NCBI GenBank assembly: GCA_000004985.1
Contig: GG738879.1
DNA from: Naegleria gruberi
Taxonomy: Eukaryota
Strand: one strand, 5' to 3'
DNA: 64,000 nucleotides
A program made the translations under genes and the position numbers. Position 1 is the first letter of the stretch. Every line of letters starts with the position of its first letter. Positions 13,725 through 55,049 of the stretch are shown here, in pieces. The notes beneath the pieces were generated by a model. It worked only from the letters and a program-made list of their open reading frames with translations. It was not told the DNA's origin and did not search any database.

Positions 13725-13935
13725 ATATTATTGTATTCTAATGTGAATAATCTTAATTTGCAACAATACTTATGAAATATTGGTATCTCTATATGAACTT
13801 TTGGGTAATCGTATGTATATATTTATGGAAATTACTCAAATTTGGAATTGTTATAAATACTGAGAAAATTGCCAACCAAGATTTTGTTTAATATTCTACA
13901 ACGCATCGGCTTTTAATTTTCAAAACTTATAAAAC

Positions 13936-15561: not shown

Positions 15562-15797
15562 TGCAACTAGTGTTGCTAATTCTGTAGTAAAAAGCGAGAA
15601 AAATCACCTTAATTAGTTTTCAATATTGGGCAATACGAAGTAGTTATTCAATACCTTGAAGGTAAGACTTAAACTGGATTTAGAATACTGACTAAATTGG
15701 AAAATGAACATTCTAAACTTTCCAAAAACATAGCATGTCCAATTTTTGTTATGAACATGGCTAAAGATTTTTCATAATAATTCTGAAAAACAAGAAA

Positions 15798-17992
15798 ATG
15801 GAACGAAATGCTCCCACCCACTTGACCAAAATAAATGATCTTGATGAACGTACTTTGAGAAAATTGTTGGTTAAAGCCACAAAGATTAAATCCAATCCAT
15901 CAATCTATTCTCACAGAATGGAAGATAAGGTTTGTCATCTTTCTTAATCAAAATTTTAACCAATAATCCACAGTCACTGTTAATGTTATTTGAAAAACCG
16001 TCACTTCGTACACGTCTTTCATTCGAAACAGCAATGACATCATTTGGTGGAAATGCCATCTATTATAGTGCCGATGAAGGACCGTTCGGAAAGAAGGAAA
16101 ATGTAAAGGATACTGCCATGTGTGCAGCTCAATATGTTGATGCATTTGTGTTGAGATTAAAGTCTAGAGAAAGTTTGTTGGAATTTGTAAAATATTCAAA
16201 AGTTCCTGTTATAAATGCCTTAGATGATTGGGCTCATCCTTGTCAAATATTGGCTGACCTGTTTACCATTGCAGAATTGAAATTAAATCCAAAACCACTC
16301 CACGAAAATCATCTCAACTTTGATAGACTGAAAATGGCTTACTATGGTGATTGTAGAAATAATGTCACTTATGATTTGATGAGAGCTGCTGCCATGATGA
16401 ATTTCAAACTCGTTCTCTCTTGCCCTGATAATGATGACTATAAACCAGTCCAAGAAGTTTGGGATGAAATCAAGAGAATCAATGAGAAGAGTGTAGAATG
16501 GATTGAAAATCCACTTGAAGCTTCTAAGGGATGTGATGTCATCTATACAGATTCATGGATGTCCTACCACATTCCTGAAAGTATGCTTCAAACCAGAGAA
16601 CAAGCATTGAAAAACTATCAAGTTAACATGCCAATATTGAAAAATGCAAAGAGTGATGTTATTTTCATGCATTGCCTTCCTGCAAAACGTTCTGAAGAAG
16701 TTACAGATGAAGTGATGGACTCTGTACATTCAGTTATCTATCATCAAGCATGGAATAGACAATGGGCTCAACAAGCACTCCTCCTCTATGTCATCTATGG
16801 ACCCAGTATCTTTTCAGAACACGAATATGAATCCGAGCTCTTATCAGAGGAAAAGTACTTTGCTATGGCTCCAAAACATCTTGGAACGATGCACTCCATT
16901 AGTAAGAAGAAGCACGAGTCTGTAAATAAGGGTGAAAAGAAATATCTGAAACATGGAAACAAGGAGAGAATACTTATAAGCTTTGGAGGAAATGCTCTTC
17001 AAAGTGATTCCACAAAGGAGGTAACCTATGAAGATTTACATTCCAACATTGATAAGAATTGTTCTGCACTTGCCAAATTTCTCCAAAATTGCAAGCAATC
17101 CAACATTTGCATTACACATGGAAATGGTCCTCAAGTTGGTTTCATTCACAAGGAATTGAATCATGAATCCCAAATGCCACTCGATGTTTGCGGAGCCATG
17201 TCTCAATCATTCATTGGTTATCAATTCCAACAATCCCTGATGAATAATATGCACCAACAAGACACGAAAGGAAATGTCCATGTTCGTTCTGTTACCACAC
17301 TCATCACACAAACTCTGGTGGATCAAAATGACAAGGCTTTCCAACATCCTAACAAGCCTGTTGGTAAATTCCTCTCTCCTGAAGAGTATGAATCATCAAA
17401 GAAGGACAAACAAATGATGACTTTCCACAAGTTTGATGAAGGCTACAGAAGAGTTGTTCCTTCTCCAACACCTATTGATATCATTGAATTGGACACTATC
17501 AAAACACTCTTCAATGAAGGACACTTGGTTATTTGTAATGGAGGTGGAGGTATCCCTGTTGTTAAAAGCCGAGATGAAGTTGGTGGTGATGAGAAAGCAA
17601 TGATTGGTAAAAAGCAAGCACAAAGAAAGAACCACCTGATGGGCATAGAAGCAGTCATTGACAAGGATAGATCCAGTTCCCTGCTAGCACAAAAGCTTAC
17701 TGTCGATTACTTTATCATTCTCACCAAAGTGGATCATGTCTACTTGAATTACTCTTCAAAAAAGGAGGAGAAGAAGCCTATTACTTCAATGGATGTTGAA
17801 ACTGCTCGACAATACATTACGGAAGGATGCTTTGAAGAAGGTACCATGCTACCAAAGATTGAATCAGCCACTGAATTTGTTACCAAGACTGGAAAACCTG
17901 CTCTCATCACAAGCTTGGACAATTTCATCAGAGAAACTTCCAACAATGAAATCAAACTACGTCATATTGAAGGTACTTGGATTGTTCCATAA
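15798..17992 (+). CDS. Bifunctional ornithine carbamoyltransferase-carbamate kinase fusion protein. join(15798..15929,15974..17992), ~717 aa.
   Basis: The N-terminal half carries the carbamoyltransferase motifs SLRTRLSFE (STRTR), HPCQILAD (HPxQ) and HCLPA (OTC-type HCLP). The C-terminal half carries the carbamate kinase signature ITHGNGPQVG plus the EGTMLPKIE-type C-terminus. Exon 1 (MERNAPTHL...HRMEDK) joins through a 44-nt GTTTGT..CAG intron in phase 0, restoring the conserved OTC N-terminus. Confidence 0.8.
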
Positions 17993-18787
17993 ATCTAAAA
18001 ATTCTATCATCCAACAACATTCACAACATTAATAAACAATAGTGGTGATTATTCGTGATATTTAAATCAAAACAAGAAAAAAATTCCCTTCATGTTGATT
18101 GAACTTGGTGTTGCTTTTATTTTTTAAAAAATTAAAAAAAATTAAAAATGCAAAATCTGAAGATGAGAGATCAAACACATTAATATTGAAACGAGACAAC
18201 CGTTGTTTAGTATTAATAGTAGGATGAAATATTGTTGTGCTTTGCTTTTTTGAAAAGGATCTCCATTACCTGAAATTTCATCAATATTTGCTTACTATGT
18301 ATCATACACACCAAAAAAATTGAAGGCTTGGTGTCCTTGATATTTCCATCACACTTTCAGTAAATATTGGAGGTAGATATTATTGTTTATCGGATCAGTA
18401 ATTCAAGGGTTTGAATTGGTCATTAAGATAATACAATTCATACAAGACAGGAGAAATTCTTGCAAAAAGCTTACCGAATCAAAGCTTCCGTATGTTATTC
18501 AATGATCAAAAGGCTTTTCAGCACAGCACATTTTCCACCAAACCTTCCTCTTTTCAAAAGTTTCATGAAACCTTGTAATAGTTGATACAAAACTATAGTA
18601 ATTTGTCCAAGATGGTCAAGTAATTACAGAAAGGGCAGGTAGTATCCTGAACGATTTAACCAAATTTTGGATGGTTGTTGACTTGTATGTACAGCCGTTG
18701 AGGGTATTTGATGGATACATTATTTTACTGCAATTACCGAGGGTTGATTGTTACAGGCAAAACACATCACAAAAAAACATCAACACA

Positions 18788-20069
18788 ATGGCAACTGACA
18801 CATTGCTCAACAAACAGAGCTATTTCGAAAGTTTGCTGACATTATCAGAATCTAACTCAACTATAACAACAACAAACACTACTCATGCCTCTATTGCCGC
18901 CCTTTTCCCTCAATTCGATGAAAATGTTGGATCCATAGTGGTTTCATGTGTCTTTCTTACATCATACGCCATTGTTCTCTCAGCTATTGCTGTACTATTA
19001 ATACGATATAGACAGGAAATGAAAAAGAACCAAGTGATTGTGTTTCTTTTAGTGTCTTGGTGTATGATACAGCAATCTATCGCCTTGGCATTCAGACTTG
19101 GATACAATGGGAAAGCTCTCTCGTTGAATTTAAACTATTCAGACTATACCACGATTGAGAACTTGAGCTCTCACTTCTTGCCAATCTACATTTGTTCTGC
19201 AATTGAAAATATGGCAGTATACTTGCAGGGAGTTGTGATTGTGGTGATCACTTGTTTCATCTTGAATATGTTGTAAGTTGTCACAACGTTTTTATTTTCA
19301 AATAACTGATATTCTAAATAGTTTGGATACTGCTCGCATTGCACATGCCATGTCAGCTAAGGCTTACAAAATCTTCAAGTACATGTTCAATATTATCATT
19401 GCAATCTTTGCTATTAGCATCCTTCTGTTGGTATTTGTTCATGTGGGTGTTATTTTGGCGTCAAAGGTTGCTCCAAATTTCAATGTGAACGTTTTCCCAA
19501 TTTTGATTGTCATCTTTTTGGCTTTTACTATAATGATTTCAATTGAATCATTGATGTTTATATTTGTTGGAGTTAAATTGATAATATTTGTGAGGAAAAA
19601 TTCTCTTAAACTTGGAGCTCAGGCCAATGCAAATTTCCTTCAAAGACCAGAAACTAAAATTGCAGGATTAATTATTGGAATGTTGATTAGTGCCTACTTC
19701 CAATTATTGGCTGCTATTGTTGGTATCATGACAACAACTTTCAATTCTACTTTCCACTTTCTCGATTATTCCTTTCAAGCTGGAGGAATTTTACTCTTCT
19801 CAATCTTTGTCTTACTGGTTTATAATCCTCTGGTTTCATTCACTGCAAAGGACGGCAACCCATCCACAGAAAGTCTCAAATCAGAGAATAACAAATCAGA
19901 GAATCACAAATCAGAGAAGATAGTTTCAGAGAAATCACTTGCTTCTCAAAGAAAGAGTCAAACCTATCCAAACTCTCCTATTCGTGAATTGGATTGTGTG
20001 TCACCAACAACTACAACATCAGGTGGTGGGCCAACAGAAGAATCCCCTCCTGAAATTGCCAAAATATAA
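18788..20069 (+). CDS. Seven-transmembrane receptor-like protein (putative GPCR) with a Ser/Lys-rich cytoplasmic tail. join(18788..19272,19322..20069).
   Basis: Seven hydrophobic helices in the spliced product. The intron is GTAAGT..AAATAG (49 nt, phase 2) and joins the two track ORFs into one frame (…ITCFILNMF LDTARIAH…). Confidence 0.65.
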
Positions 20070-20260
20070 AAAACATTGTACCATAAACTTTGATATGTTT
20101 ATTTAAAAAGGAAATAGCAAAATATAGGAAAACTGTTACTAGTGAGCTTGAATACCCTCAAAAATCTTCTAATTTTGGATGGCCACTACTTAAACCATAA
20201 TGTTTACCATCTCTGTCATGAACAATTCTTGCAAAGAATTAAAATCCAAAATAAACATAT

Positions 20261-21106
20261 TTACAGTAACTTTTGCATGTCCATTAAAACAAATTCCGTA
20301 GAGGTGTGCACACCCTCAATGATTAATTGTTCATCCTGAAGTAAATTCTTTGAATCAAAGTGAATAAAACATCCATCTCCTTCGCTTAATTCAATAATTC
20401 TGCTTGAACTATTACTTGTCACCTTGATGACAATTGGCACTTCAATATCGTCATCTTTCTTTCTTCCTTGAGATGACTTTCCACTCGTATCTTCCTTCTT
20501 TTGATTAAACAATGGAATGTGAATATAAATTTGTCTATCTGGATGGAGTGAATGTGTCACTTGTTTTCCTTCTTCCAAAACACATGACAGGGCATAGAAA
20601 TCTTGATCGATAGCAATAAGATTTTCACTCTCAGGGTCATTTACAACTTCTTTAGGGGCAATCATCATGCAAAGTTGATTCAATTTCTGAGCTTTCGAAT
20701 AATTTCTTAGTTGATAATTTGGTTTGGAATTCAAAGTTCTAGGTTTCACCCAAATTTGCAACAAATGACAAATATCCCTCTTATTTCTATTAAACTCACT
20801 ATGTTCAATTCCACTTCCAGCAGAAGTAAACTGAACTGAACCTTTCGTACAAACTTCCACATTTCCCATCGAATCAGAATGTGTCAATTGACCACTCAAC
20901 ACATACGTAAATATTTCATAATTTCTATGAGGATGCCTTCCAAATCCATTCGAAACTCCAACAAAATCCTCATTCAACACTCTCAATGGTCCAAATTGAG
21001 TAAATTTTCCATTCGAATATTTTGCAAAATTAAAGGTATGATAAGAATCCAACCAATCTTCTAGGAAATGACCTCGTTGATGAGAGGAGAGAATTTCAAA
21101 TTTCAT
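20261..21106 (-). CDS. Pirin (cupin-fold) family protein.
   Basis: Pirin motifs HPHRNYEIFTYVLSG, HSDSMGN and FTSAGSGIEHSE. Start chosen at MKFEIL, where pirin homology begins. Confidence 0.8.
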   Translation of the reverse strand: MKFEILSSHQRGHFLEDWLDSYHTFNFAKYSNGKFTQFGPLRVLNEDFVGVSNGFGRHPHRNYEIFTYVLSGQLTHSDSMGNVEVCTKGSVQFTSAGSGIEHSEFNRNKRDICHLLQIWVKPRTLNSKPNYQLRNYSKAQKLNQLCMMIAPKEVVNDPESENLIAIDQDFYALSCVLEEGKQVTHSLHPDRQIYIHIPLFNQKKEDTSGKSSQGRKKDDDIEVPIVIKVTSNSSSRIIELSEGDGCFIHFDSKNLLQDEQLIIEGVHTSTEFVLMDMQKLL

Positions 21107-21386
21107 TTTTGTGATTTTTTTTGATTTTGTTTTTTGAAAATTTTTTGATTCTAAATAAAGTTTTTTGCGTATTGGGAAGCGCATTAATTGATGAGTTAGT
21201 GCGCACTCAATTTCTGAAAGAAAAAATGCTGTAAAAAATGGGGTCAATCCTGTGGTTATTTTCTCGATCAATATAGTGGATTAGGAAACGATATTTGAAG
21301 GAAAGATAGATTTACATGTCTAGTTTATGTGGTTAAAATTTTAAAGTTTAACTCCTACTAGGAAGGGCAAAAATTGACATTTCAGA

Positions 21387-21457
21387 TGCGTCGACCGGGA
21401 ATTGAACCCGGGTCACGGCGATGGCAACGCCGTATTCTACCACTAAACCATCGACGC
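21387..21457 (-). tRNA. tRNA-Gly (anticodon GCC).
   Basis: Cloverleaf: acceptor GCGTCGA/TCGACGC, anticodon loop TTGCCAT, T-loop GGTTCAATTCC. Confidence 0.85.
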
Positions 21458-25200: not shown

Positions 25201-25274
25201 GCCTTCCTAGCTCAGTTGGCAGTAGCGCTGTCCTAGTAAGACAGAGGTCTTGGGTTCGATTCCCAAGGGAGGCA
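25201..25274 (+). tRNA. tRNA-Thr (anticodon AGU).
   Basis: Acceptor GCCTTCC/GGGAGGC, anticodon stem CTGTC/GACAG with loop CTAGTAA, T-arm CTTGGGTTCGATTCCCAAG. Confidence 0.85.
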
Positions 25275-25313: not shown

Positions 25314-28069
25314 CTATTTAGTGTCCAATCGATCTTCAAAAGCCCATGAGCTTCGCATACTAACATCGTCCACCATTTCTCTGAGTTTTTCCAATCTCAT
25401 ATTCGCCACGAAATCAGTCGGATCTCTGCTCACAACCTTTCCAAATAACTCAATCGCCTTCACCACATCTTCACTTTTAAGATTATTCATAGTTGAGCTC
25501 ATGTTCATGGAATCCACCACCCCAAAAGTGTGTTTCTGTCCATCAATTGTAAGCTTATCTGGAACGCATTCACCATGAGAGTAACTTCCAAACATTATCT
25601 CGATTGCATCTTCAAAGTTGGTCTTGTTTTTGGCTTTCAATTCGTGCGAGTTATTCGAAACTGTTGAAGGTGTTCTTGTGAGAATTTCAAATACCCAACT
25701 TGCTTGTTGTCTTCCAACAACTGCTAAGCGGCCTATTTTTCTTTGATTCCTCTTTGGAAGAAGTGGAGATGTTTCAATTACTTCCTTCGTAACGAGAATG
25801 TCAACTCTGTAATGTTTAGTCAAAGATTCCAAACGAGCTGCCAAATTGACAGTATCTCCAATAATGGTTGGATCAACTCTTTGATCTTCACCAATCAATC
25901 CAACTGCACATTTACCTCTTGCAATTCCAATTCCAACTCTAACTGTTGGATATTTCTTACTCTTATTGAATTCTAATAATCTTCTTTGTATTTCCATTGC
26001 TGCCAAAACAGATTGACCAGGAGTTAAAAACAATGCCAAAATACCATCACCCAAATACTTGTCAATATATCCACCATGTTCTCTCACAACTGGTCCAACC
26101 AATGACAGATAATTATTCAAAAATTCAAAAGTCTCATCTGGTGTCATCTTTTCACAAATACTTGTATAACCTCTAATGTCAGCAAACAACACATCCAATT
26201 CCATTTCAAAGTAATCTCCGTGCGTAAGGTCCATTACACTCTCCTTCTGAACAATCGACATGAATTCCTTTGGAACAAATTTGTGAACTGTCTCATTGTG
26301 CAATCTTAACAAGTCCTGAATGGTCCTCGAAAAGATTAACGACATAATTGATGAAAGGAAAATTCCCATAATTCCACCCACTGTATATCCTATCAATTCC
26401 TTAATAGCAAGCCCCTCTGATTCATTCTGATCCAACAAAATATCATCCCTAATCATATTCTCAATAGTTTTCAATTCATCGATTTTTTGTGTAATATTCC
26501 AGAACCAATTTTGAGCTGTAAAAATTGTCTTGGCATAGGTCAAATTGAAAGGAGAGGCCAATATGTATGATTCCATCATGTTTGTAACGGTCGCATTATT
26601 CACACTCAATGAAAGTTGCTCAAAATATTTGAAAGATCCAACATTTCTAGATTTGGCATCAATGATTGTGAACATGGTATCAAATCTTGATCTCAAATAC
26701 AAGTAACTGACATAGAAATCATTGGTAAAGGCACCAGCAGCTAATCCATTACTCACAGTAGCTCTCTTCTGACCCAAACTTTCCTTCATGACCATTAGGA
26801 GTGAATAAATATTCGATTTGATAAGAAAATCTGGATCTCTACCTAAACTTGTCGCCACATTTACAATATCAATCATATTCTTAATGATGGTAGTATAGAA
26901 ATCGAGAGCTACCTTCGCCACTGGAAATTTCAATGTTGAAATATTGTAACGATGAGCAGAGAGTATATGAAACGATGCATCAATCATATCGAGAGTTGGT
27001 TCAACTTTTTGTTTGGCAATTGTTTCGTCTTTTGCATAGGTAAAATAATCAATAATCCCCTTTTTTGTCGCATTCCAATTCAGTAATTGTAAATCTGTTG
27101 CATTTCGTTGTAAATCAAGCTCAGTAGTAAATGAGGTACCTTTCGAACCTAAATATAAAGAAGAAGAACCTCTTTCTTTTTGAATTTCATGAATAATATC
27201 CGAAATACCAGTTGTGAATATGGTAAGAAGAGTGTTGGCATCAGATTCTTTCACTCTCTTTCATCAAATTCAGTTTCGAATAATTACAATAAGAAACTTA
27301 CCAAAACTGAATAATTAATTAAAATTCCTTCAAATACTATCATACAAGCTAAAGAAAAGATAAAAATCAGAAGTAATTTGATAGAAAGTGGAATCTTTGC
27401 CAATATTTTTGATAAAGTCCACTTTCTTGCTTCCTTTTTCGAGACAACACTATACGAAATGTTAGAAGAAATACTGGAAGAAACTCCCATCATATTCTTT
27501 TCATATGAAGACCTAGACCCTGTATCCATTGTTCCTTCCTCAAGTGTTGTCAAATAATCTCCCTTCATATCATTTTCCTCAGCTTGTTTCGAATAAGTAC
27601 TTAGTGAACTAACTGATTTCTCCTTTTGCAATAAACTAATTTCCTTAGAACTTCTCAATGAATTCATTGTTGAACCTTGTTTTAGAAGAAAGTTGGTGTT
27701 GAGTGTTTTTTGAGTTCGAACCGAAACTAAACTTGGTTTACTCGCACTAGAACTCATGGCACCTAGATTAAGAGGAGTAATTTGATTTCGTTTAGGAGGA
27801 TTACTTTCAGGTCGAGAAACATGATGCTGATGAAGAAATAAATCTTCTGACTTGTTAGAAACTTTAGACGAATCGCCTACTATTGTATTCCTATCGTGCT
27901 GTTCTTCGTTCATTATTGAGGAAAGTCTTTGATGTTGTATGGATGATGTTTCGTCTATTGAATTCGAAAGTAATTCATCAGTTGTAGCACGGTGATGGTG
28001 TTCATGCGGAGAAGATGAATTACTACTACTACCGGAAGAAGATGTATGTTGCTTATACTTGTCAGACAT
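25314..28069 (-). CDS. Receptor-type class III adenylyl/guanylyl cyclase with an extracellular NIT-like sensor domain (paralogue A). complement(join(25314..27257,27302..28069)), ~903 aa.
   Basis: Exon 1 is a low-complexity cytoplasmic region plus TM1 (KIPLSIKLLLIFIFSLACMIVF). A 44-nt GTAAGT..AAAG intron is in phase 0. Exon 2 holds a NIT-like domain (IIHEIQKERGSSSLYLG; second half-repeat ESLGQKRATVSNGLAAGAF), TM2, and a cyclase domain with FADIRGYTS, KYLGDGILALF and GIGIARG. Confidence 0.8.
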
Positions 28070-28422
28070 GCTATAGTCAATTTTTCAAAGAACTCATGCA
28101 CAGCTGTTTCGAATGAAATGTTTTTTTAAGAGATACTTAAAGTATAGTTCTCTAAGATTCGGTTAATTGTTGGTGAAAACGTAAAAGAACTGAATCATAT
28201 TCTTAATGTTTTATGAGAGAGAAACTTCAACGAATCAACCCTTGGATAGAATAATCGAAACAGATATCTCCTTCGCTTCCTATACATAATAAAGGAAAGA
28301 ATTGTAATTTTTAGTAGTGACTACTACCGCTCTGCTCATCTTACGAATATTCAATCTAGAATTTCCCTCCAAAAAACATCACCCTCTCAAAACAAACCAC
28401 ACCAATTGACCATTCCAATCAT

Positions 28423-31059
28423 TTATTTAAAATCAAGTCGATCTTCAAATGACCACATTGTATTGGCACTCAAAATTTCTTCCAATTTTGTTATTCTCAT
28501 TTGAACTAAATAATCCTGCGAGTCAACTTCTTGAATTTGTTTCAGATAATCAAGTGCTTGAATTGGATTAAACAAATCCTTTTCATACATCATGGCAATG
28601 GATGCTTCGAATTTATCCTTATGTTTCTTCTTACTGTCAACTGAACCAAAAGATGGAGATTCTGTCAAAATTTCAAATATGGTGCATGATTGTTGTCTTC
28701 CAACAACTGCAATCTTTCCAATATTTCTGTATTTGGCATTGGATAAAAGTGGTGATGAATCAATTACATCTCTTGTTACCATAATGTCAACTCTGTAATG
28801 TTTAGTCAAAGATTCCAAACGAGCTGCCAAATTGACAGTATCTCCAATTATGGTTGGATCAACTCTTTGATCTTCACCAATCAATCCAACTGCACATTTT
28901 CCTCTTGCAATTCCAATTCCAACTCTAACTGTTGGATATTTCTTACTCTTATTGAATTCTAATAATCTTCTTTGTAATTCCATTGCTGCTAAAACAGATT
29001 GACCAGGAGTTAAAAACAATGCCAAAATACCATCACCCAAATACTTGTCAATATATCCACCATGTTCTCTCACAACTGGTCCAACCAATGACAAATAATT
29101 ATTCAAAAACTCAAACGTCTCATCTGGTGTCATCTTTTCACAAATACTCGTATAACCTCTAATGTCAGCAAACAACACATCCAATTCCATTTCAAAGTAA
29201 TCACCATGATTCAAATCCATGACGCTATCCTTTTGAACAATCGACATGAATTCCTTTGGAACAAACTTGTGAACTGTCTCATTGTGCAACCTTAACAAAT
29301 CTTGAATAGTCCTTGAAAAGATTACAGCCAAAATGATAGAAGCAATTACAACACTGAAACCACCAACACAATAACCCATAAGAGAATCTTTGGCCGATGA
29401 TTCAATACTTTGCGAGTTATTAAATATGCCATCTCTAATGTTATCTTCCACTACTTTTAATTCATCAATCTTGGTAGTCACATTCCAAAACCAATTCTCT
29501 GCAGAAAACACCGATTGGGCTTTTGTTAAATTGAATGGTGAAGACAACATGTATGATTCCATCATATCAACAACAGCGTTACTCTTTACATATCCAGTTA
29601 ATTGTTGATAGTATCCAAGACTATCCCTGTTCCTCGATTTGGCATCAATGACCATGTACATGGTATCATATCTTGACTTTAAATATAAAAAGTTTACATA
29701 GAGATCATTGGTGAAAGCACCAGCAGCCACAGCATTACTACCAACAGCTCTTCTCTGACCTAAACTTTCCTTCATGACCATCAAGAGTGTATAGATGTTG
29801 GTCACGACGAGGAATTTACGATCTTCAGCCAAAGCAGCCAATACAGACACCACATCAATCATATTCTTAATGCAATTTGTGAAAAAATCCAATGCAGGTT
29901 TGGCCACTGGAAATTGTAAATTTGAAATCTTTTCTCTGTGAGAAGGCAGGACATTCAAATAGATATTCTCAATAATTTGAATAACTGTATACGTCTGATT
30001 CCTTGTAATTTCATCTTGTTCTATCAGTAAATCGAAAAATTCTGCAATAGAAGCCCTAGTTTCATTCCATTTAGAGAGGGCAAGGTTTGTGGCATTCCTC
30101 TGTGTAGCCAATTCAACCACAAACTTTTTACCTTTACCACCAAGAAAGAGTGATGAAGATCCACGTTCCTTTTGCAGTTCGTGGATGATTTGGGCAATAT
30201 TGGTGGAGAAGGTCGTTAATTTCTGAATACTCTGTGCTTCAAGAACTCGCTATATAGAGTAAGGGCCAACACCATGTTATTGTTATTGTGGAAAATCAGA
30301 GTTGTAATGAAACATCAATAAGAAAAATTGACAAATACCCAATTAAGGGATGAAACATACCTTTGCAGAATCATTCACTAATATGGCTCCAAAAACCACA
30401 AGCGAAATGATTGATAAAATCACAATAAAGAAAAGTTTCACAGGAAGAGGAATCATGGCAACGAGTTTTGAAAAGCTTACTCTCTTCTTTCGTTGCTGGT
30501 TTCTACTGACGATAGAGTAAGAGACTACTGATGAGGATATCGATTTCTGCGTGATTGACGTTCTCATCTTTTCCATGTCATCAAATGGATCTGTCTTGGC
30601 AAGATTTTGAAGGTTATTATCAAAGTTTTTAGAACTGGTGATACTGGATAGGAGTGAGCTCTGCGTTTTAACTGCAACTGTCTTGGATTCCTTCTTTTGA
30701 GTAGAGTTGTTTTTATAGTGATGATTCGGTTTGGATGAATTCATGGGAGAAACCTTTGCCTTAGAAGAGAAGAATATTGAGGTACTTAAGGTATTTGTTG
30801 TATTCCTTGTTGATTCTTCTTGTTGTTGCTCTTCATCTTGTTGTTGTTCTTCTTCAATGGTTGTACTCTTTTGATACGAAGGAGCATTTCCTTCCTCACT
30901 ATATGGTTTCTGAACGGGTGAGGGATCCTCTTCCAGAGTAGTAGTCCCACTCACAGTGTATCTATTCTCTCTATGTGAGAGATCCTGATGATGTTCCTCA
31001 TGATGTTGATGCTGATGATTTGTCATTTGGTGTGAATTTGTTTTTTTCTGTTGTACCAA
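28423..31059 (-). CDS. Receptor-type class III cyclase with a NIT-like sensor (paralogue B). complement(join(28423..30249,30362..31059)), ~841 aa.
   Basis: Same architecture as A. Exon 1 ends ...FGAILVNDSAK|GTATGT and exon 2 begins RVLEAQSIQKLTTFSTNIAQIIHELQKERGSSSLFLG. The 111-nt intron is in phase 0, and the catalytic core is ~97% nt-identical to A. Confidence 0.8.
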
Positions 31060-31931
31060 GAGATAGATGCAAACACAGCAAAACGCTCATTCACACTCCT
31101 TGTGACTTGGAAATATAGTAAAATTCGCAATGAAGCTGTTGCACACTGTAAGAGAATATTCAAATCCGTTTTTTCTGCTTCCCAACCCTTAATAAGATAT
31201 TAAGATATAATTTTAGGTAGAAAACTCTAAAGGCCAATAATATAACCACCGAAATTTATAGTAATAACCTGATAGTGAACAATAAACGCGATAATTCTTC
31301 AAGTATTAATAGCTGTAATTGAATAGAGAGCTTTCATTAATTTGTTAAGTTGGTTCGTGGATTGGAAAAGGTAGTTTTTAAATTATCTGACCACAACCTC
31401 CGATAGTTTAGTTAAAACTTGGTAGATACCACATTGTATTCCCATTCATCCAGTTTGATGTTGTATCAAATGGCGATTCATGCAAGAATCGCTTTTTAAT
31501 TTTGAACTACTTCTCCCTGAATCAATAAAGCAGTTTTACAAAAGAATCCCATGTCTATTTCTATCTTGGTGACATTGTTCGATTTGCATCTCGGTAACAT
31601 TACCTTTCTAGTTGTGGCTATCTCTGATTCTATTAACAAACTTTCCAAGTCCATTACCTTAATGTAGATAGCATATTACTGACTATATTTGAAGTTTATC
31701 CGTCCTTCTTAATTATATTTCTAAGATTCTTTACTGTATTGAAAATGTACAATGAACCAGTTGATGATGCATTTGAATCAGTTCATTGACAAAATTGATT
31801 CGAATTGCATTGGGGAAATGTTGAACGTAAACTGTTAACCTTGTGAGTTGTTGCTTTCTGTTTGCACATTGTAAACAACAAACCAAAACCAGTTTTATCT
31901 GGAAAATGGAATTTTAAAAATCATAAAAAAA

Positions 31932-33754
31932 ATGCCCCGAATTACCACAAGTGACAAAAAGCGACGATTGAACAACAAGCGATATGATGAGTTTAGTAAG
32001 AATTTAGCATTCGAACTGGCCGATAATTCCGAAGATGAAAAGGAAATTGCACAACAAGAAGCAAGTGTTGACCATGAAACTTTTAAACAACTTCATCCTG
32101 TACAGATTAGCCCAAAGGATGTTGATATGATCGTGAGTGCTGTGGTTAAAAAGGCTGATTGGAGAGTTAAATTGGGAGAATTAGAGCTCAAGTGGAGGCA
32201 GGAATGCTCAAGGCAGAATATTTCAGTAGCTAGTGCGAATGTTGCTTTTGAAATTCTACGTGACATTAATTTTCAAGGTTAGTTGTTGATTGGATTTTCA
32301 ATTAATTTATTTGATAATTTTTTACATGTTTTAATGTCATCAAATTATTTAGGAAGTGGATCCAAACAATGTTGTGGTAAGTGTTGAAATAATTCTTGAT
32401 AAGTTGTGACACATTGAAAAAAGGATGTTGTGGAGCTAATCCTCAATCAGAAAGAGAGGAAAGAGCATCAATCAGGAAGAATGACAAACCATACGTCCCA
32501 AGAGGTGTAGAAGATCACATCTCAGACGAAGAAGAAGAAGAAGATGAATACTTTGATTTCGAAAGGTACTCTAGAAGTACAAGATTTTGTGAGTGTCCTT
32601 GTGTACATTGCTCAACTAAACTTCCAAAATATAATGGGGCTATTGTTGCTGATAATTTAATTCCCAGCGATTTGAAACAGAGATTGAAAGATGAAATTGC
32701 AAAATTGGAGAATGTTCCAGAAGATAAGAAAGATTGGCATCCAGGAGCAAATAAGCAAGTATTGGACTTGATTCATCCTTCATTGTATTGTTATGTTGAT
32801 AAGGTTAGTGTTTCTGAAAAGGAAATGGAACCTGAAGTTGAAAAAGAAAGACATTGGTATCAACCAAAACCAAGTTATGAAAAACCAAAATCCAATAGAT
32901 GTCAATGGTTACCTGCTGAATTTGAAGTAACATATGATAGCAATGTTGGATTAGATGCTAAAGATGCTGAACCTACTGTGAAAATCAATAGCTATATCAA
33001 TAATATCGATCAAATCAAACAACCAGAACTTTATGATGTTATTGGTAAAATATTTGGTAAATTCCACAAACAAATGAAACAGAGTCATCATTCTATTGGA
33101 AGGGCAGACACATTACAAGTCATTGTAAAAGCTGCCAATATTATTGTAACCCCAGATAAGCCATTTTACTCTGGAGGAACTTTCCATATGGAAGGAATGC
33201 CCTATGAACACATTGCTACAACTGGTATTTATTATTATCATTCAGAAAATGTAAAGAATAGTTATTTGGAGTTTAGATCTGGTATTTCAGAGCCATACGG
33301 ATACCAACAAGACGATGTTAAAGGATGTTTCGAGCAATATGGACTTCATGATGGTGATTTACAATTCAGAAGTGAAGGAGCAATTCACACCAAGGAAGAT
33401 AGATGTATCATTTTCAATAATACCGACCAACATAGAGTAAGACACTTTTTCCCTATTGATCCTTCGAAACCAGCCATTAGAAAGATACTCGTCTTTTTTA
33501 TTGTGAATCCAAGGAATAGAATCATCTCTACACAAGATGTTGACGTGCAAAGATTTGATTTCCTTATTAATAGATGCTTTATTTTGAACAAATTACTCCC
33601 ATTCCCAATCGTTCACACAATTGTACAATTTATGCCACACTTTACTCATGAGGAAGCTTTGAAAAATAGAGAAGAACTTATGAACCAGAGAAAGTACTAT
33701 GTCGATGAGCAAAACTTGGAAATAGAAAGAGAATTTTCACTTTGTGAACATTAG
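31932..33754 (+). CDS. Hypothetical protein, possibly DUF4246-like. A 5' ORF 31932..32282 is probably spliced to 32396..33754 (donor CAAG|GTTAGT at ~32279); the exact acceptor is unresolved.
   Basis: 452-aa main ORF with a motif GGTFHMEGMPYEHIATTGIYYY. A GTTAGT donor closes the upstream 116-aa ORF. A candidate 24-nt mini-exon would leave an implausible 27-nt intron. Confidence 0.45.
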
Positions 33755-34147
33755 ATTTATTATAAAATCAATTGTTATATGCTAAAGTTAATAAAAGAAC
33801 ATTTAATTTTTGATGTTCCAAACTTTACTAAATATTAAGAAATGAGGTATTGAACAAGTTGTTCCACTCCTATCTGAAATCAATTGGAAGATGTGAAAGA
33901 AACAAGTAAAGTATAAACATGTTGACCATTTTTCATTTGAAAAAGTATTAAAATAATCTGAATTTTTTTGCAAGCCGTAGCAAGTGCCAATAAAAATGTG
34001 TACTAATCAGAGGCTTCTAAAAATGGAAATATACAATAGTTTAGAAAAATAAAAACACGATTATCAAGATAGAGATCCATACCACCAAAGAATAAAGAAT
34101 AGTCGCCCAAAAATTAAAGGTATTCAATAAAATAGTAAAAGTATGAC

Positions 34148-34217
34148 TCGAGTGCCGGGAATTGAACCCGGGTCGCCAGAGTGACAGTCTGGAATGCTAC
34201 CACTATACCACACCCGA
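34148..34217 (-). tRNA. tRNA-Asp (anticodon GUC).
   Basis: Anticodon stem-loop CCAGA-CTGTCAC-TCTGG, T-arm CCGGGTTCAATTCCCGG, D-arm GTATAGTGGTAG. Confidence 0.85.
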
Positions 34218-34565
34218 TTTCACATATCGTTCACTAAAATATTTCTTTAAAATAAATAACAAAATAAATTTAATATTTACAATTTTTTAAAAAATTAAAT
34301 ATTGTTTCCGACATCAAGCTTACAAGTTGAGGACATGATTCTCTTCCAATTGCTTAATTTTAACCAATACAATCATTTTCAAAGAAACACTATCACTTCA
34401 ATTAAAGATGTCTATTTACTGAGTAGTGCTGCTAAACACTTTTGTAAACAAACAAAACACCGAACAAAAAAAATTCCCTACAACGTCGAAATTTTTGTTG
34501 TCCATTTTTCTATCATCAAGAACAACACTCTTGTCGGCACCATCATATAAAAATTCATCATCATC

Positions 34566-35591
34566 ATGTACGCTGCAGCACGTAGATTTACCTCTTCTTC
34601 AACTTTGGCATCAGTCTACAAGGCCCAATCTGCCAAGACTCTCTTTGCCAAGAATGCTAAATTTTCTCAACATAGCAACGCCAACAAGCAACTCATGTCT
34701 CAAGTTGGTATGGTCCAAAAGGCCTTCTCTCACGACGTAGAAATTAGCGTTAAATTTGTTTATGATGATCAAAACGTTGTTTTGGAATTGTTGAAGGAAC
34801 ACGGAGGAAAGGTTGAACAAACATCAAACATTAACGTTACATACTTTGATAATGTTCCACAAGATGAAGTCCTTCCAGAAGCTGCTGAAGTTGCCAAGGA
34901 TAGACCACAAACACAAGAAAGATACACCATGACTGCCAAGGATTCTTGGTTGTTGAAGGAAAGTACACAAGATTCTATTGAATGGAAGTGTTCTTATCCA
35001 AATGTCGAAGAAGGAAAGACTCACTTGGATCAACCACTCACTGCAAGAGTTCCAATGTATCAAGAAGCTATTGGAGAAAGAGAAATTCGTAGATTTTTAA
35101 ATTTACAACAAGATATGACTGCTGAAGCTAGAACTGGTACAAAGTTGCCATCTTTGGATGAAGATTTGCGAAAGAGATTAAGTATTGTCCCATTCGCCAA
35201 GATTGACTATACTGAAACTACTGTATCTGTATCACCATCTATTAATTATGCTAATATTAATGTCACTTTGAGAGATGCTTCTTTCGGATACAAATTGGGT
35301 ACTCTTAAATGTAGTGTTCAAAATATTAGCAGAGAAATGGCTGATGATTTGGGTGTACATTTGTTGCGTTTGTTCGAATCCACTAAATTGAACAAGTTAA
35401 TACAACCACACGCTAGATCTATTGTTGAAGAATACTTGTATAGAACTCGTCAAGGAACCCACTACAAGACTCTTTTGGAAGCTGGTATTCGTGATGATAA
35501 GCTTATGGATCCTGAAACTGCCAGAAATGAAATTAATGCCATGTTGGAAAAGCAAGGAAAGTCACCACTCGCTGAACCAGAAGAAAACTAA
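34566..35591 (+). CDS. Hypothetical protein with an N-terminal mitochondrial-presequence-like region.
   Basis: 341-aa ORF starting at an ATG. The N-terminus MYAAARRFTSSSTLASVYKAQSAK is basic and amphipathic. No firm family assignment; a CYTH-like EISVKF motif is only a weak hint. Confidence 0.45.
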   Translation: MYAAARRFTSSSTLASVYKAQSAKTLFAKNAKFSQHSNANKQLMSQVGMVQKAFSHDVEISVKFVYDDQNVVLELLKEHGGKVEQTSNINVTYFDNVPQDEVLPEAAEVAKDRPQTQERYTMTAKDSWLLKESTQDSIEWKCSYPNVEEGKTHLDQPLTARVPMYQEAIGEREIRRFLNLQQDMTAEARTGTKLPSLDEDLRKRLSIVPFAKIDYTETTVSVSPSINYANINVTLRDASFGYKLGTLKCSVQNISREMADDLGVHLLRLFESTKLNKLIQPHARSIVEEYLYRTRQGTHYKTLLEAGIRDDKLMDPETARNEINAMLEKQGKSPLAEPEEN

Positions 35592-35899
35592 ATTTCTCTC
35601 TCAGCAATAATTTTCACTGTGTAATTAAACCTAAAATATTTTATAAAAAAATGGGGCTGATACCTAATGTTAAATAGTCAATTTGTTGTTTGACAGGAAG
35701 TTAATTTGATTCATGACATTTCATCATTATGAAAATTAATTTCTATCATCATGTTATTCCAATCCGAGAATTATTTAATATTAGAATTTAACAATAAGAA
35801 GAAAAATGCCACTCCTTCAAATTAGTGAAGATGAAATGGATGAAATCAGAGCCTTCTATGAGCTCTTACTAACAGGGAGATGATGATGAAAAAACCGAG

Positions 35900-36631
35900 T
35901 TGGCAGTTAGTATTAAAATTCCAGGAGGTAAATCATTGTCAACCTCCAATCTAATAACCAATAGGAGAATGACTTCAACAGATATTCAAAGTCTCTTCCA
36001 TAGAATTGGATTAAAAGTAACCTCCGATCAAATCAGAGAAATTATTAAGGGAGCACACGAATCCTACTATAGAAAGTCTGACAATTCACTCCCTAATGAT
36101 TCAATCAATTTTAATGAATTTGTTCATCTCATCAATGATAAACCACCAGCCAATGTTTCTCGAGAGCAATTAATCACAGCCTTTAAAATCCTCTCAGAGA
36201 ATGAGGAGGGAGAAACAGAGGGCTACATGTCCGTTGATGAATTGGAGAGGTACCTCACTCATTTTCACTACTGTACCGAGAAGCACTTTGAAGAGGAACA
36301 GGAAATGAATGATGAAGATGCCGAGTATTTGGAAAATAGTAATGTTAATACTTCCCTCAATTTGAAGCAAGTTAAAAAGGCTCGGAATTTCCTCACCGAT
36401 CCTCAATATGATATGAGACCTTTCACTAAGAAGGACTTTCACAAATTGGTTGATATTTTAGATCCCTATTGTAGTGGACATATTAATTATTTGAAATATG
36501 TTAGCATGATGTATGATGGATTAATACAAGGTGAAGAAATTTCCGAGAGTAATAATAATAACACTAATAACAACACTAATAACACTAACAACACCAATAT
36601 TCATCACCACCATAACCATAATGGAAAGTAA
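35900..36631 (+). CDS. EF-hand (calmodulin/myosin-light-chain-like) protein with a C-terminal Asn/Thr/His low-complexity tail. The 5' end is uncertain.
   Basis: EF-hand-like segment QLITAFKILSENEEGETEGYMSVDELERYL. The ORF opens with TTG; the first in-frame ATG gives MTSTDIQSLF. An upstream small ORF (35806..35880) may be a uORF or an upstream exon. Confidence 0.45.
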   Translation: MAVSIKIPGGKSLSTSNLITNRRMTSTDIQSLFHRIGLKVTSDQIREIIKGAHESYYRKSDNSLPNDSINFNEFVHLINDKPPANVSREQLITAFKILSENEEGETEGYMSVDELERYLTHFHYCTEKHFEEEQEMNDEDAEYLENSNVNTSLNLKQVKKARNFLTDPQYDMRPFTKKDFHKLVDILDPYCSGHINYLKYVSMMYDGLIQGEEISESNNNNTNNNTNNTNNTNIHHHHNHNGK

Positions 36632-37049
36632 TTATATCACCTCCATCTCTTTCATTACTGAACAGCAACCTGTTGTCCTAACGGGCTTATTGAATATATT
36701 GTGAGATACGAATTCAGCAAGAAATCAAAGAAGAATAACCCTGAACTGGATTGCATCACAATGATGAAAATACGTTAACTGATAATAATTGTCCGTTTAA
36801 CAACATAAGAAGCAAGAAGAATCTGCTTTAAGGTCACCTTAGTCTTTATTAAGAAGATAACAAGTAAAAAAACAAACATCATCACCATTGCGTCGTTCAT
36901 CATCATTGCTTGGAAAAATTGCTCTCAAGTCCTCTCTCACTGATAGAATAGATATGGAAATATAAGGACAATTCACCACATCAAATAGATCAAATTTTTA
37001 TTATAATATATAATATTATTGAATACATAGAGAAAGTAGAGAAAATAGA

Positions 37050-39521
37050 ATGAATAACTTTGTAACAGCTTTTCACTTAACTTCTATAGAGGATTTTAGT
37101 CCTATACAACGAGCTTACTTTCAAAACAATGGCGACCCGCAGCAACATCCACCTAATACACCTGACAATTCAACTACCACCTCTCACACCCCAATATCTG
37201 TACTCTCCTCAATTCCCTTCTATTCTTCGAAGGCCATTTCCAAGAATAATAGTGTTGCTCCTCTTCATGTATCAAATTATAGACCAACCACACCAAAGAT
37301 TAGAAAACAAACTTCTCTAAGCTTTATAAGAAGTTCCAAGACCTTTGATGTTTCACATTTACAGCGAGTAAGAATCTCAACCAGCTCATCAACGAGTCCT
37401 CTCATTGAGGAACATGTAGAAAAACCGAAAATCACAACATCACTACAAAAGTCTATTGCAGCATCTTCGACTGTTCCCTATGCTGTGGTTACATCATGTG
37501 ATACGAAGAGGATTAATCTTTCAAAATTAGTGGCAATGATTCCACTGCGAATCAAATTGTTCTTTATTGTCATTGTATCGATAGTTTCACTAGTGGCATT
37601 TGGTGCTATTCTTATTAATGATGCAGCAAAGGTATGTTTTTAAGCAATATATTAATTTGACAAGTTAATTATTTAACATTAATTGAACCTTTTTCAGAGA
37701 GTGGTGGAAACACAAAGTGTAAAACAATTAACGTTATTTTCAACAAATATGGCACAAATGATTCATGAATTACAAAAGGAGAGGGGTGCATCCTCTCTCT
37801 ATCTAGGAGCTAGAGGGACTAAATTTGGTTTAGAGCTTGGAAAACAAAGAAATGTAACAAACTCAGCTATTGAAAATTGGCCATCAACAAAAAAGTCTAT
37901 CGATGAGTTTTTCAATTTACTGACAGATAAGGATGATGTAGCTAGAAATCAAACTTATTCCATGGTGTCAAAAATTGATGAATATCTGGGTCAGCTGCCA
38001 AATCAGAGAGAAATGATTCAAAATTTACAATACAACTCATCCAAGCCAGTTATTGATTACTTTTCAGATTGTATTAGGGATATGATTGATGTAGTTTCAG
38101 TGGCTGCATCTTTGGCAGACGATAGAAAATTCCTAGTCATATCAAATATTTACACACTAGTCATGGCTTTAAAAGAAACATTGGGACAAAGAAGGGCCAT
38201 TGGAAGTAATGCTATGGCCGCAAGCGCTTTCTCTAATGATTTTTTCTTTTCATTTCTTGATCTCAAATCTAAATATGTGGCCCTCTATCAGGTTATAGAC
38301 ACCAAGTCAAGAAATAAGGATTGTATTGAATTATTTACCGATTTGGCAAATTATGTACAAAATTCATCATTGATAGATATGATGGAAAGAAACATGTTAT
38401 CCTCCCCTTTTAATTTATCACAGGCTGAACAATCATTTTCTGCTGAAATGTGGTTTTGGACCATTACTGAGAAAATTAACCAACTCAAAATGGTCGAGGA
38501 CAAGATTAGAGATTCAATATTTTCAAATGGTGAGGACATGAAAAAAAGTTCCATGGATGCTTTGATTGGATATAGTGTTGGAGGTTTTTGTGTGGTTCTT
38601 TCCTCCATTATTTTAGCTTTAATCTTTTCAAGAACGATTCAAGACCTGATGAATCTGTACGATGAGACAGTTCACAAATTCGTTCCAAAGGAATTCATGT
38701 CGATTGTACATAAGGATAATGTTGTAGATTTAAAGCACGGAGATTACTTTGAAATGGAATTGGATGTCATGTTTGCTGATATTCGTGGTTATACAAGTAT
38801 TTGTGAAAATATGACACCAGATGAGACGTTTGAGTTTTTGAATAATTATCTGTCATTGGTTGGACCAGTTGTGAGAGAACATGGTGGATATATTGACAAG
38901 TATTTGGGTGATGGTATTTTGGCATTATTTTTAACACCAGGTCAATCTGTTTTAGCTGCAATGGAATTACAAAGAAGGTTAATTTCTCTGAACCAATCTA
39001 AGAGGTATCCAACAGTAAAAGTTGGTATCGGTATTGCAAGAGGTAAATGTGCAGTTGGATTGATTGGAGAATCTCAGAGAGTTGATCCAACCATTATTGG
39101 AGATACTGTCAATTTGGCATCACGTCTTGAATCCCTTACAAAATATTACCAGGTGGATATTGTGGTAACAAGGGAAGTTATTGAAGCATCTCCACTGTTG
39201 GATCCATCAAGATTTAGAAATATTGGAAAAGTTGCAGTTGTTGGAAGACAACAGGCATGTTCAATTTATGAAATTATTACTCAATCTCCAAACAATGATA
39301 AGGAATTGAAGAAGGCTGTCACAAAAGAAAAGTTTGAGGCAGCTATTGAAATGATGTATGATAGGGATAATTTTTATCCAGATGAAGCTCTTGAATATCT
39401 CAAACAAGTTGTTGAAGAGGATGAAAATGACTATGTAGCTCAATTGAGAATGTACAAGCTGGAAGAAATTCTAAGTTCAGAATGCACTTGGCAGTATGAA
39501 GATCGATTAGATTTTAAATAA
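37050..39521 (+). CDS. Receptor-type class III cyclase with a NIT-like sensor (paralogue C). join(37050..37631,37698..39521), ~801 aa.
   Basis: Exon 1 ends ...LVAFGAILINDAAK|GTATGT. The 66-nt intron ends CCTTTTTCAG, and exon 2 begins RVVETQSVKQLTLFSTNMAQMIHELQKERGASSLYLG. TM2 is GYSVGGFCVVLSSIILALIF. The catalytic domain is near-identical in protein and nt sequence to A and B. Confidence 0.85.
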
Positions 39522-41175: not shown

Positions 41176-42634
41176 TTTTTATTATTGTATTTAAAAACAG
41201 TTTTGACACATTTTGGGTTTTTAATTGGAGAAATCTTTCGAATAGTTTCAACGCGCAATACGCAAGAGTGCTTTTTTGTAAATTTTTCAACTAGACCCAT
41301 TTTGAACACACACTGAAACCTTAAAGATTATTCACACACTTATCAAATAACACGATACTTTTCTAATAAGCTGCCAATTAAAACAATGAATAGAGACATT
41401 CTCACCATATTATTATTACCATTTCACTCTAACCATCACAAACTTCTTTCTATTGAGAATTGCTCACAAACGTGTCTGATATCTTTCTTGTCATCATCTC
41501 ATCTGTATCGAATGAATTGAAAGAGAGTGCGCCTAATATGATGTTGTGTAACAACTCTTTTGTGTTGCACAACATTATTTGATGATCAGAAAATGGTTTA
41601 TTTGTGACAACTTAAGAGAAATTCAATCGAATCAAAGAGCATTCAATAGATTTAGAGCATTCAATACTATTGAAAAGGAAGGCTTGCTCTGACAATGAAC
41701 TTTCTGATAATAATTTTGTATATAATAGCTAGTAACTTATTAGAAACTGTGCTTAAAATTTTAATTTACCATTTTACGTGCATAGCTCACGGTAGGTATT
41801 GTAATATTCTTAATCGGCAGTATCTGAGGTTTTTGAAATCTAAATCCTGTTTCCAATAAAGATTTCGTTCATTTTAGGAACTTATTTAGAAAAGTGGATT
41901 CCAAGAAAATGAAGTTCTTCCATTATCGATTACCAATCATATCGAATAATGTAAAATGCAATTTTTTTATTAAGAAAACAGTCGTTTTATTACATATTAT
42001 CAAACTATTCGAAAGGAATCATGTCATGATGATTTCTGTCGATTTTCGAATAATATTGATTCAGATAGAAACATGGAGGATTGTATGCTGAGAAGATGTC
42101 TTTCATCGCTGTCAATCCAAAGTGAAATCAGTCTAACTTTCATAGGAGATTCCGTTACTAAATCAAGGTTTCTGATAATCCAAACTATTCTCCAACTCTT
42201 CCAGTTCAAAGAAGAAGAAGGAGCTGAATACAAGACAAAGGAAATAGGAGCAATAAAATCGAATAAGAGTTATCATGTCGATGCTTTTTTTTAAAGAAGA
42301 ACTATTCAATCTGAAAGTTGCCATTCTTGTTGTTGTGTTTTGAATATCTAACCAACAAATTAACATATTTAGAAAGATACCAAACATAACATGTAGATAA
42401 AAAACGGTCGAGCAATAACAATAATTCAATTTCTGTTAGACTCTACACCATGCAAATGAAGAAGATTGTGTTAAACCAAGAGTTCAAACTCTCAAAAGAC
42501 GAGTTGGAGGAAATATTATAAAGGATATACGAACAATGAGATTAAGGCACAAAATTTGAATGATTTGCAATGGGAAGTTAATTGGACAACGACCACTGCA
42601 TGTCATATTAAGGAGAATTTCATTATGAATGTAA

Positions 42635-42708
42635 GCAGCGATAGATCAGTTGGTTAGATCGTAAGCCTAACACGCTTAAGGTCGCGGGTTCAAGCCCCGC
42701 TCGCTGTA
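42635..42708 (+). tRNA. tRNA-Val (anticodon AAC), copy 1.
   Basis: Acceptor GCAGCGA/TCGCTGT, D-arm GATC...GATC, anticodon loop CTAACAC, T-arm GCGGGTTCAAGCCCCGC. Confidence 0.85.
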
Positions 42709-42728
42709 TCCATTTAGTCTTTTTTCAT

Positions 42729-42773
42729 TTATTGAGATTGACATTTAGCATCGATCTAAGGTTGAGCTTAAAA
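42729..42773 (+). promoter_or_regulatory. Conserved tRNA-downstream element (TTATTGAGATTGACATTTAGCATCGATCTAAGGTTGAGCTTAAA), external-B-box-like, copy 1.
   Basis: The same 45-nt block follows both tRNA-Val copies ~20-40 nt downstream. AGGTTGAGCTT resembles the B-box consensus GGTTCGANTCC. Confidence 0.5.
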
Positions 42774-55009: not shown

Positions 55010-55049
55010 TCCTTTTAGTGACATAAAACTCAACACACTCTTTTTTCTT

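Follow-up and report, generated by a model that had tools for sequence, protein, structure and literature searches.

The question raised by this stretch of the Naegleria gruberi genome (assembly GCA_000004985.1, contig GG738879.1; "the window" hereafter means the whole 64,000-nt stretch analysed) is how three genes that have diverged strongly over most of their length can be nearly the same DNA within a single domain. The genes, A (25314-28069, minus strand), B (28423-31059, minus strand) and C (37050-39521, plus strand and inverted relative to A and B), are all intact, consist of two exons and share one layout, in which a NIT sensor is followed by a class III cyclase domain. The original prediction, made from the letters of the window, attributed the likeness of the cyclase cores to gene conversion or concerted evolution confined to the catalytic domain. 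This proposal was borne out by a trough in synonymous divergence, an excess of identical codons over codon usage, a control within the genes themselves and the grouping of homologous tracts by species. Recurrent interlocus gene conversion without crossover, which overwrites the cyclase-domain DNA of A, B and C, is considered very probable.

Extent and edges of the homogenised blocks

Nucleotide identity, synonymous divergence (dS) and the proportions of differing nonsynonymous (pN) and synonymous (pS) sites were calculated segment by segment from a codon alignment of the three genes. The strongest signal was found between A and B, which lie in direct orientation in a fixed register of 2986 nt, as one 420-nt block (A 25797-26216 and the homologous B 28783-29202, both on the minus strand; alignment codons 354-493, from GDYFEMELD to YRVDI) with 98.1% identity, a dS of 0.08 and a pN of 0.003. 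The block covers essentially the entire Pfam cyclase domain and holds 8 differing sites, and dS in its flanks exceeds 1.3 and is saturated. Along sliding windows, pS between A and B falls from ~0.7 in the flanks to 0.08 in the cyclase domain, and dS per domain shows the same trough (to 0.08) rather than uniform divergence, as the original prediction had anticipated. The 3' edge is sharp, lying after codon 493 (..GAC ATT), beyond which identity is ~60%; immediately past it, at B 28783, A reads CTC GTT ACG AAG and B reads ATG GTA ACA AGA.

The homologous segment of C (38742-39161, plus strand) is a mosaic, with ~50 differences and an overall identity of 87.6% to both A and B. Its first part (38742-38786) is 89% identical to A and B, and is followed by sub-tract 1 (38787-38978, 192 nt), with 95–96% identity to A and B and a dS of ~0.2. 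Next comes a C-specific island (38979-39035) at 66.7% identity to A and B, which are 100% identical to each other there; this island is the helix-to-strand loop, reading LISLNQSKR in C and LLEFNKSKK in A and B. Sub-tract 2 (39036-39119, 84 nt) returns to 93–95% identity, with dS values of 0.1–0.2, and a second C-specific island (39120-39161) again shows 66.7% identity to A and B, themselves 100% identical over it.

These limits revise the extent first claimed for the block, namely ~97% identity of all three cores over ~550 nt. Measured over that wider block, A and B are 94.6% identical (551 nt), A and C 85.5%, and B and C 85.8%; over the C block 38690-39130, the A–C and B–C values are 88.0%, and all three genes agree at 86% of positions. 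The figure of ~97% thus holds for A and B over 420 nt, which is about the length of the homogenised block, but for C only the two sub-tracts come near it, at 93–96%. A run quoted as identical in all three genes, which lies within C sub-tract 1, is 86 nt long and exact in A (26032-26117) and C (38841-38926), with one mismatch in B (29018-29103). C, described as inverted and 8 kb away, lies in inverted orientation ~9–12 kb from A and B.

The claim that the flanks are far more divergent held. Identity among the three genes is 56–64% at the nucleotide level in the NIT region (pS ~0.74, dS saturated) and 57–67% in the C-terminal tails, and exon 1 retains 25–42% amino-acid identity, the exon of A being only 25–32% identical to those of B and C. 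The contrast was evaluated with a maximal-segment permutation test on degenerate codons, limited to those at which the amino acid is conserved in both genes. The best A–B segment holds 129 identical codons in 136, against 119 in 212 outside (p < 5e-5); the best A–C segment holds 97 in 116 (p ≤ 1e-4) and the best B–C segment 40 in 41 (p about 1e-4). An internal control is provided by the linker of 34 codons between the membrane helix and the cyclase domain (C 38640-38741, plus strand, corresponding to A 26217-26318 and B 29203-29304), where the A and B proteins are almost identical (pN 0.04) but synonymous sites are saturated (pS 0.62).

Site patterns along the genes conflict. B is closest to C in exon 1, in the outer NIT segments and in the tail, and A is closest to B in the core. 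Within the NIT region, one 90-nt patch (A 26649-26738, minus strand, and B 29635-29724; codons 180-209) departs from its surroundings, since 27 sites unite A and B against C, 9 unite B and C against A and 2 unite A and C against B; with an A–B identity of 80% and a pS of 0.52, it looks, by its site patterns, like an older, decayed A–B conversion outside the catalytic domain. All 8 differences of the A–B tract sit in the sub-tracts common with C (P ~0.035, which is only suggestive), and this confinement hints at three-way exchange. The matching of A–B differences to C on one side was dropped as evidence of mosaicism, because any single mutation gives that pattern.

B and C also form an inverted repeat of 431 nt (28963-29393 and 38551-38981, 87% identical), with 9.2 kb between its arms. 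The interval contains a DUF4246 gene, a tRNA-Asp gene and three other open reading frames (ORFs), and would be flipped by a crossover, as opposed to a conversion, at this repeat.

Sister species and a sibling strain

Tandem pairs of NIT-cyclase genes were found in N. fowleri (locus L004; cyc1 10001-12321, cyc2 12558-14782) and N. lovaniensis (locus L003; cyc1 10001-12314, cyc2 12508-14754). In N. fowleri the two copies share a perfect run of 458 nt (11262-11719 and 13785-14242), and in N. lovaniensis a perfect run of 424 nt (11289-11712 and 13775-14198). Outside these runs the paralogues are 45–70% identical, with saturated dS, and the orthologues are 75–85% identical. Between the species the tract shows 36 differences, 30–31 of them synonymous, corresponding to an orthologue dS of 0.43–0.45; at all 36 sites both paralogues of a species share the same base, and the paralogue dS is 0–0.02. 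The value of 0.43 between species implies that synonymous sites in the module are free to change. Distance trees of the NIT region, of the C-terminal half of the cyclase domain and of the tail each joined N. lovaniensis cyc1 with N. fowleri cyc1, and cyc2 with cyc2, which is the grouping by orthology, whereas the tree of the tract joined the two copies of N. fowleri and the two copies of N. lovaniensis. Perfect runs within each species, together with divergence between orthologues, thus make the cores cluster by species and the flanks by orthology, which is the grouping that the original prediction had proposed to look for in related species.

The pairs resemble the trio of the window in being tandem and of the same architecture, with homologous proteins (37–49% amino-acid identity), and in all of them the homogenised block includes the N-terminal half of the cyclase domain. 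They differ in that the tract of the sister species, 100% identical, lies further 5' and takes in the second membrane helix, the linker and the N-terminal half of the domain, whereas between A and B the whole domain is homogenised and the helix and linker are not. On their 3' side the sister-species tracts stop directly after AAIEIQ, no more than 9 nt from the 3' end of C sub-tract 1, and their edges differ slightly between N. fowleri and N. lovaniensis. In every tree partition A, B and C group as a clade of their own and are not one-to-one orthologues of the sister-species pair, and no synteny of neighbouring genes was found between the window and the N. fowleri, N. lovaniensis or Willaertia loci; a neighbouring gene of 423 amino acids was considered as a synteny marker and rejected, the match in length being coincidental. 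From the separate clade and the lack of synteny it follows that the trio and the sister-species pair are distinct duplications that behave alike.

Several features of the sister loci were noted in passing. The frame of N. fowleri cyc1 is disrupted just after ..MDATIISD (L004 ~11860-12020), which may be either gene decay in this strain or an indel of the long-read assembly, and the deposited model of this gene (P0004) omits the VNLSARLESLTKQ motif that bears the catalytic Asn and Arg. A short intron lies within the cyclase domain of cyc1 in both species (L003 11867-11912, L004 11858-11912) and is lacking in cyc2, A, B and C, and in Willaertia (L002) the cyclase domain is interrupted by introns at two different sites. 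About 1.5 kb downstream of the N. fowleri pair, genes for a reverse transcriptase, an endonuclease and an RNase H, resembling those of a long interspersed nuclear element, occupy L004 16246-22321; this element is absent at the corresponding place in N. lovaniensis.

A sibling strain of the N. gruberi of the window was found in the ENA metagenome assembly ERZ929261 (run ERR1078381), whose contigs are 97% identical to the window, with ~1% substitutions plus many intergenic indels; no mention of the project, PRJEB11402, was found in the literature. One contig (L016) covers window positions 15612-21454 and shows coding substitutions of 0.7–1.3%. Another, the MEGAHIT metagenome contig L001, spans the entire gene C at 97% identity. 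Of its 16 substitutions relative to C, 9 fall in the 298 nt from 38681 to 38978 and 7 in the remaining 2174 nt. Of the nine core differences, eight carry the state of B (binomial 3e-12, given that B and C differ at 25 of the 298 sites), and from 38796 to 38938 the contig holds a 143-nt run identical to B, flanked by retained C-specific sites. The simplest reading of this contig is that it carries a B-to-C conversion patch differing between strains and that the process is ongoing. A protein search for the sibling strain recovered only the orthologue of C (P0001), and none of A or B.

Probable gene conversion and competing explanations

The case for recurrent conversion draws on features observed directly: the trough in dS, the tract edges, the conflicting topologies, the clustering by species in the sister genomes, the mosaic ancestry and the involvement of an inverted copy. 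A mosaic ancestry of this kind is the expected product of repeated non-reciprocal exchange. The exchange is read here as conversion without crossover, since neither an internal 420-nt block nor an inverted copy can be homogenised by unequal crossing-over. Had B and C crossed over, the 9 kb separating them would have been inverted; crossing-over between A and B would have left fused or deleted genes.

How the exchange works at the molecular level, which copy acts as donor and why the tracts end where they do can be inferred along the following lines. Non-reciprocal homologous recombination would repeatedly rewrite the cyclase-domain DNA of old paralogues. A and B, in tandem 3 kb apart and in direct orientation, would recently have exchanged the whole 420-nt domain, and the inverted C, 9–12 kb off, would have joined through shorter, discontinuous patches of 192 nt and 84 nt, which may reflect two separate events or the patchy repair of one heteroduplex. 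Only the catalytic segment may remain similar enough, through strong protein constraint, for strand invasion and heteroduplex extension; each conversion would renew this similarity, so that a homogenised segment would become a better substrate. Tracts would halt on reaching strongly diverged sequence, as in the NIT sensor, the helix-to-strand loop and the C-terminal tail; mismatch-repair anti-recombination, selection that protects paralogue-specific parts from being overwritten, or the two combined could be responsible.

Some points tell against this explanation. For every assembly used, the evidence is assembled sequence. The test of grouping by species rests on homologous pairs in other species and not on A, B and C themselves, for which no orthologue set was found in the sister species; a search of JGI metagenomes for closer relatives gave 0 hits with an exact degenerate pattern and, in a protein-guided scan, only relatives of ~35% identity, which were not used. 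The polishing of long-read assemblies with short reads could slightly inflate the perfect identity seen in N. fowleri and N. lovaniensis. As a MEGAHIT contig, L001 may owe part of its B-like states to the merging of paralogue bubbles, and against a strain background of 0.7–1.3% the clustering of its differences is by itself only moderately unusual; the strong part of this evidence is the match to the state of the paralogue and not the clustering. Finally, GC content at third codon positions (GC3) is not raised in the tracts, being 0.22–0.24 in the core compared with 0.30–0.35 in the NIT region, and 0.32 in the sister-species tract compared with 0.24–0.43 in its flanks, so that the signature of GC-biased conversion is absent.

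Selection may also have a part in keeping the catalytic module identical, a suggestion offered here as tentative and, on balance, rather doubtful. Dimerisation is obligatory for class III cyclases, in which both subunits contribute to the active sites. If neighbouring paralogues with different NIT sensors formed heterodimers, conversion of the module could preserve a matching dimer and catalytic interface even as the sensors grew apart, and combinatorial receptor cyclases would result. Such selection would account for the recurrence of the module, with a nearly coincident 3' boundary, in three genomes, and for the identity of A and B where C diverges.

Among the explanations that compete with recurrent conversion, the one that survives best, itself improbable, is a single recent replacement of the catalytic domain, whether by domain-level duplication or by one conversion; a very recent domain-level duplication had been named as the alternative in the original prediction. 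The A–B tract agrees with it, as one contiguous 420-nt block of uniformly low divergence, but the rest of the locus fits poorly. C has two separate patches of similarity with islands of 67% identity between and after them, and the linker and the NIT patch carry intermediate, older signals. N. fowleri and N. lovaniensis each homogenised their own pair after their divergence, with tracts that are independent, and the C allele of the sibling strain has a different mosaic.

An assembly artefact, in which the collapse, consensus or polishing of paralogous reads produced the near-identical blocks, is a far more distant prospect. Identical repeats of 400–460 nt are classic sites of polishing errors, the sister genomes are polished long-read assemblies and L001 comes from a de Bruijn graph assembler. 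Nevertheless, differences persist within the 420 nt, both the 8 between A and B and the roughly 50 of C, an independent contig reproduces C at 97%, and the pattern is seen in three independent genomes. Polishing, furthermore, cannot raise ~60% identity to 100% with sharp edges, nor can it create species-specific substitutions common to both copies.

An account without recombination, in which purifying selection is combined with codon bias or with selection on the nucleotide sequence itself (as for an embedded RNA element), is scarcely credible. It is true that no part of the protein is more conserved than the core (pN 0.003–0.066) and that its codons are slightly more preferred (mean ln w of -0.21 to -0.34, compared with about -0.4 in NIT). 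However, when expected codon identity was computed from the codon usage of 18 other long ORFs of the window, only 65 ± 5.5 identical codons were expected in the A–B core at conserved amino acids, against the 129 in 136 found (z = 11.6); for the A–C and B–C cores, 99 identical codons in 124–125 were found against about 59 expected (z = 7.5). No such excess is present in the NIT region or the tail, where observed identity equals the expectation (z 0–2), indicating complete synonymous saturation. Codon bias was therefore ruled out as the cause, the core lying far above the expectation from usage and the rest showing no excess. Protein constraint was likewise ruled out, by the linker and by the divergence between species: the linker is conserved as protein and yet synonymously saturated, so that strong protein constraint in these genes does not yield nucleotide identity, and the tract that is identical within a genome has a dS of 0.43 between genomes. 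No Rfam family was found under the tracts, which speaks against an embedded known RNA as the cause of the conservation.

Unequal crossing-over in a tandem array would suit A and B, direct neighbours in a fixed register, but is equally hard to credit, given that divergence extends over exon 1, the intron, NIT, the tail and the intergenic DNA, that the homogenisation is internal to the genes and that the inverted C participates, which is impossible without rearrangement.

Gene architecture, surroundings and wider significance

In the layout common to the three genes, exon 1 encodes a low-complexity N-terminus and the first membrane helix and is followed by a short phase-0 intron, and exon 2 encodes the NIT sensor, the second membrane helix, a conserved linker, the class III cyclase domain and the C-terminal tail. 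In A (minus strand), exon 1 occupies 27302-28069, the intron 27258-27301 (44 nt, phase 0; acceptor read as ..AAAG/AGAGTG) and exon 2, an ORF, 25314-27257 including the stop codon (Pfam NIT 7e-40, Guanylate_cyc 2e-15); its tail is long. In B (minus strand), exon 1 is an ORF at ~30361-31059, with a provisional start codon, the intron lies at 30250-30360 and exon 2, with the architecture of A supported by ORF and Pfam matches, at 28423-30249; the ORF lister placed the start of exon 2 at 30120, and the open frame continues upstream, as RVLEAQ..IHELQKERGSSSLFLG, to the acceptor at 30250. In C (plus strand), exon 1 is an ORF at 37050-37631, also found on the metagenome contig L001, the intron lies at 37632-37697 and exon 2, with the same architecture and 97% identical to that independent contig, at 37698-39521. 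The tail of A has diverged much further than those of B and C, and A alone carries a tail insertion of ~35 residues (..GSYSHGECVPDKLTIDGQKHTFGVVDSMNMSSTMNNLKSED.., window ~25450-25590, minus strand). No additional cyclase copies or fragments were found in the window, which has a GC content of ~33% and contains spliceosomal introns.

All three proteins match PF08376 (NIT) and then PF00211 (cyclase) above the gathering score, with E-values of 1e-30 to 1e-40 for NIT and of 1e-15 to 1e-17 for Guanylate_cyc. At the sequence level the set of catalytic residues is complete in A, B and C: the two metal-binding Asp, within FADIRGYT and YLGDG, align to those of Cya2, and the Lys of DKYLGDG, the Thr of PTIIG and the Asn and Arg of TVNLA(A/S)RLE are invariant. 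The Lys/Thr pair is one that we take to be of the class IIIb adenylyl-cyclase type. The solved structures that best match the homogenised domain (E 1e-20 to 1e-16) are Cya2 (2W01), CyaB (3R5G), the photoactivated OaPAC and bPAC, and CyaC (1WC0), which are homodimeric, bacterial-type class III (IIIb-like) adenylyl cyclases and inform on the enzyme and not on the evolutionary pattern; none of the structure hits was a solved representative of the NIT and single-pass membrane architecture. The best named relatives are the cyclases of N. lovaniensis, N. fowleri and Willaertia magna, at 36–41% protein identity. The three genes are old paralogues, specific to this lineage, of a putative single-pass NIT-sensor class III (IIIb-like) adenylyl cyclase.

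A tRNA-Thr(AGT) gene (25201-25274, plus strand) occupies the 200-nt gap between the stop of a GH5-like gene (25114) and that of cyclase A (25314). Elsewhere in the window, two tRNA-Val(AAC) genes (42635-42708 and 54936-55009) have similar flanks (42605-42772 and 54906-55093, 86%), and four further tRNA genes are dispersed. The window is richest in AT (GC 26–27%) where it holds two direct repeats of 571 nt (8292-8862 and 10440-11010), which are 99.1% identical at a spacing of 2148 nt. Each repeat overlaps a long ORF (7827-8924 and 10443-11738) at its start or its end, and the pair may stem from a recent tandem duplication or represent the terminal repeats of an element. A single ORF (15932-17992, plus strand) fuses an ornithine/aspartate carbamoyltransferase with a carbamate kinase and is 54% identical to an N. 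lovaniensis protein. Named homologues of the fusion come from Carpediemonas, Barthelona, Pelomyxa and Mastigamoeba-type data, and by homology it would be an arginine-deiminase-pathway fusion common to anaerobic protists.

The human fetal globin genes HBG1 and HBG2 are the textbook case of a bounded tract homogenised by interlocus gene conversion between duplicates in tandem. The Naegleria genes resemble them in the near-zero-divergence block with sharp edges inside diverged duplicates, in the recurrence of the process and in the greater closeness of paralogues within a species than of orthologues between species. They differ in that the block is a coding protein domain, that an inverted third copy participates, that three heterolobosean genomes are affected independently and that no simple-sequence boundary element was seen. 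A parallel within Discoba is the Leishmania rac array of tandem receptor-type adenylate cyclases, one of the trypanosomatid tandem arrays that, according to a review (PMC4413820, drawing on Jackson 2007), evolve in concert. In that review, undifferentiated copies group by species and differentiated parts keep orthology despite conversion; whole copies behave in this manner, with differentiation at the array ends. In Naegleria, by contrast, the pattern is a mosaic within genes, in which the sensor and tail keep orthology and the catalytic module alone clusters by species; the sensor domain, NIT, is also of another kind. A Naegleria pangenome study counted at least 81 cyclases and found genes for mismatch repair and conversion to be present (PMC9928731), and no report of gene conversion in Naegleria cyclases was found in the literature searched. 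The process itself is classical, and these cyclases add a clear new example of it.

Several consequences follow for work on these organisms. Perfect repeats of 420–460 nt within genes are places where short-read assemblies will break or become chimeric. For protein design, the modular layout offers a variable NIT sensor on a common catalytic cassette, which is testable for heterodimer signalling. The recombination biology of Naegleria has otherwise been inferred mostly from gene inventories (PMC9928731), and the present tracts are direct evidence, at the sequence level, that homologous recombination and gene conversion are at work in Naegleria-type amoebae, including between inverted copies 9–12 kb apart. 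Trees of the catalytic domain in the large heterolobosean cyclase families will falsely show recent species-specific duplications, and the signal of orthology is to be found only in the sensor and the tail.

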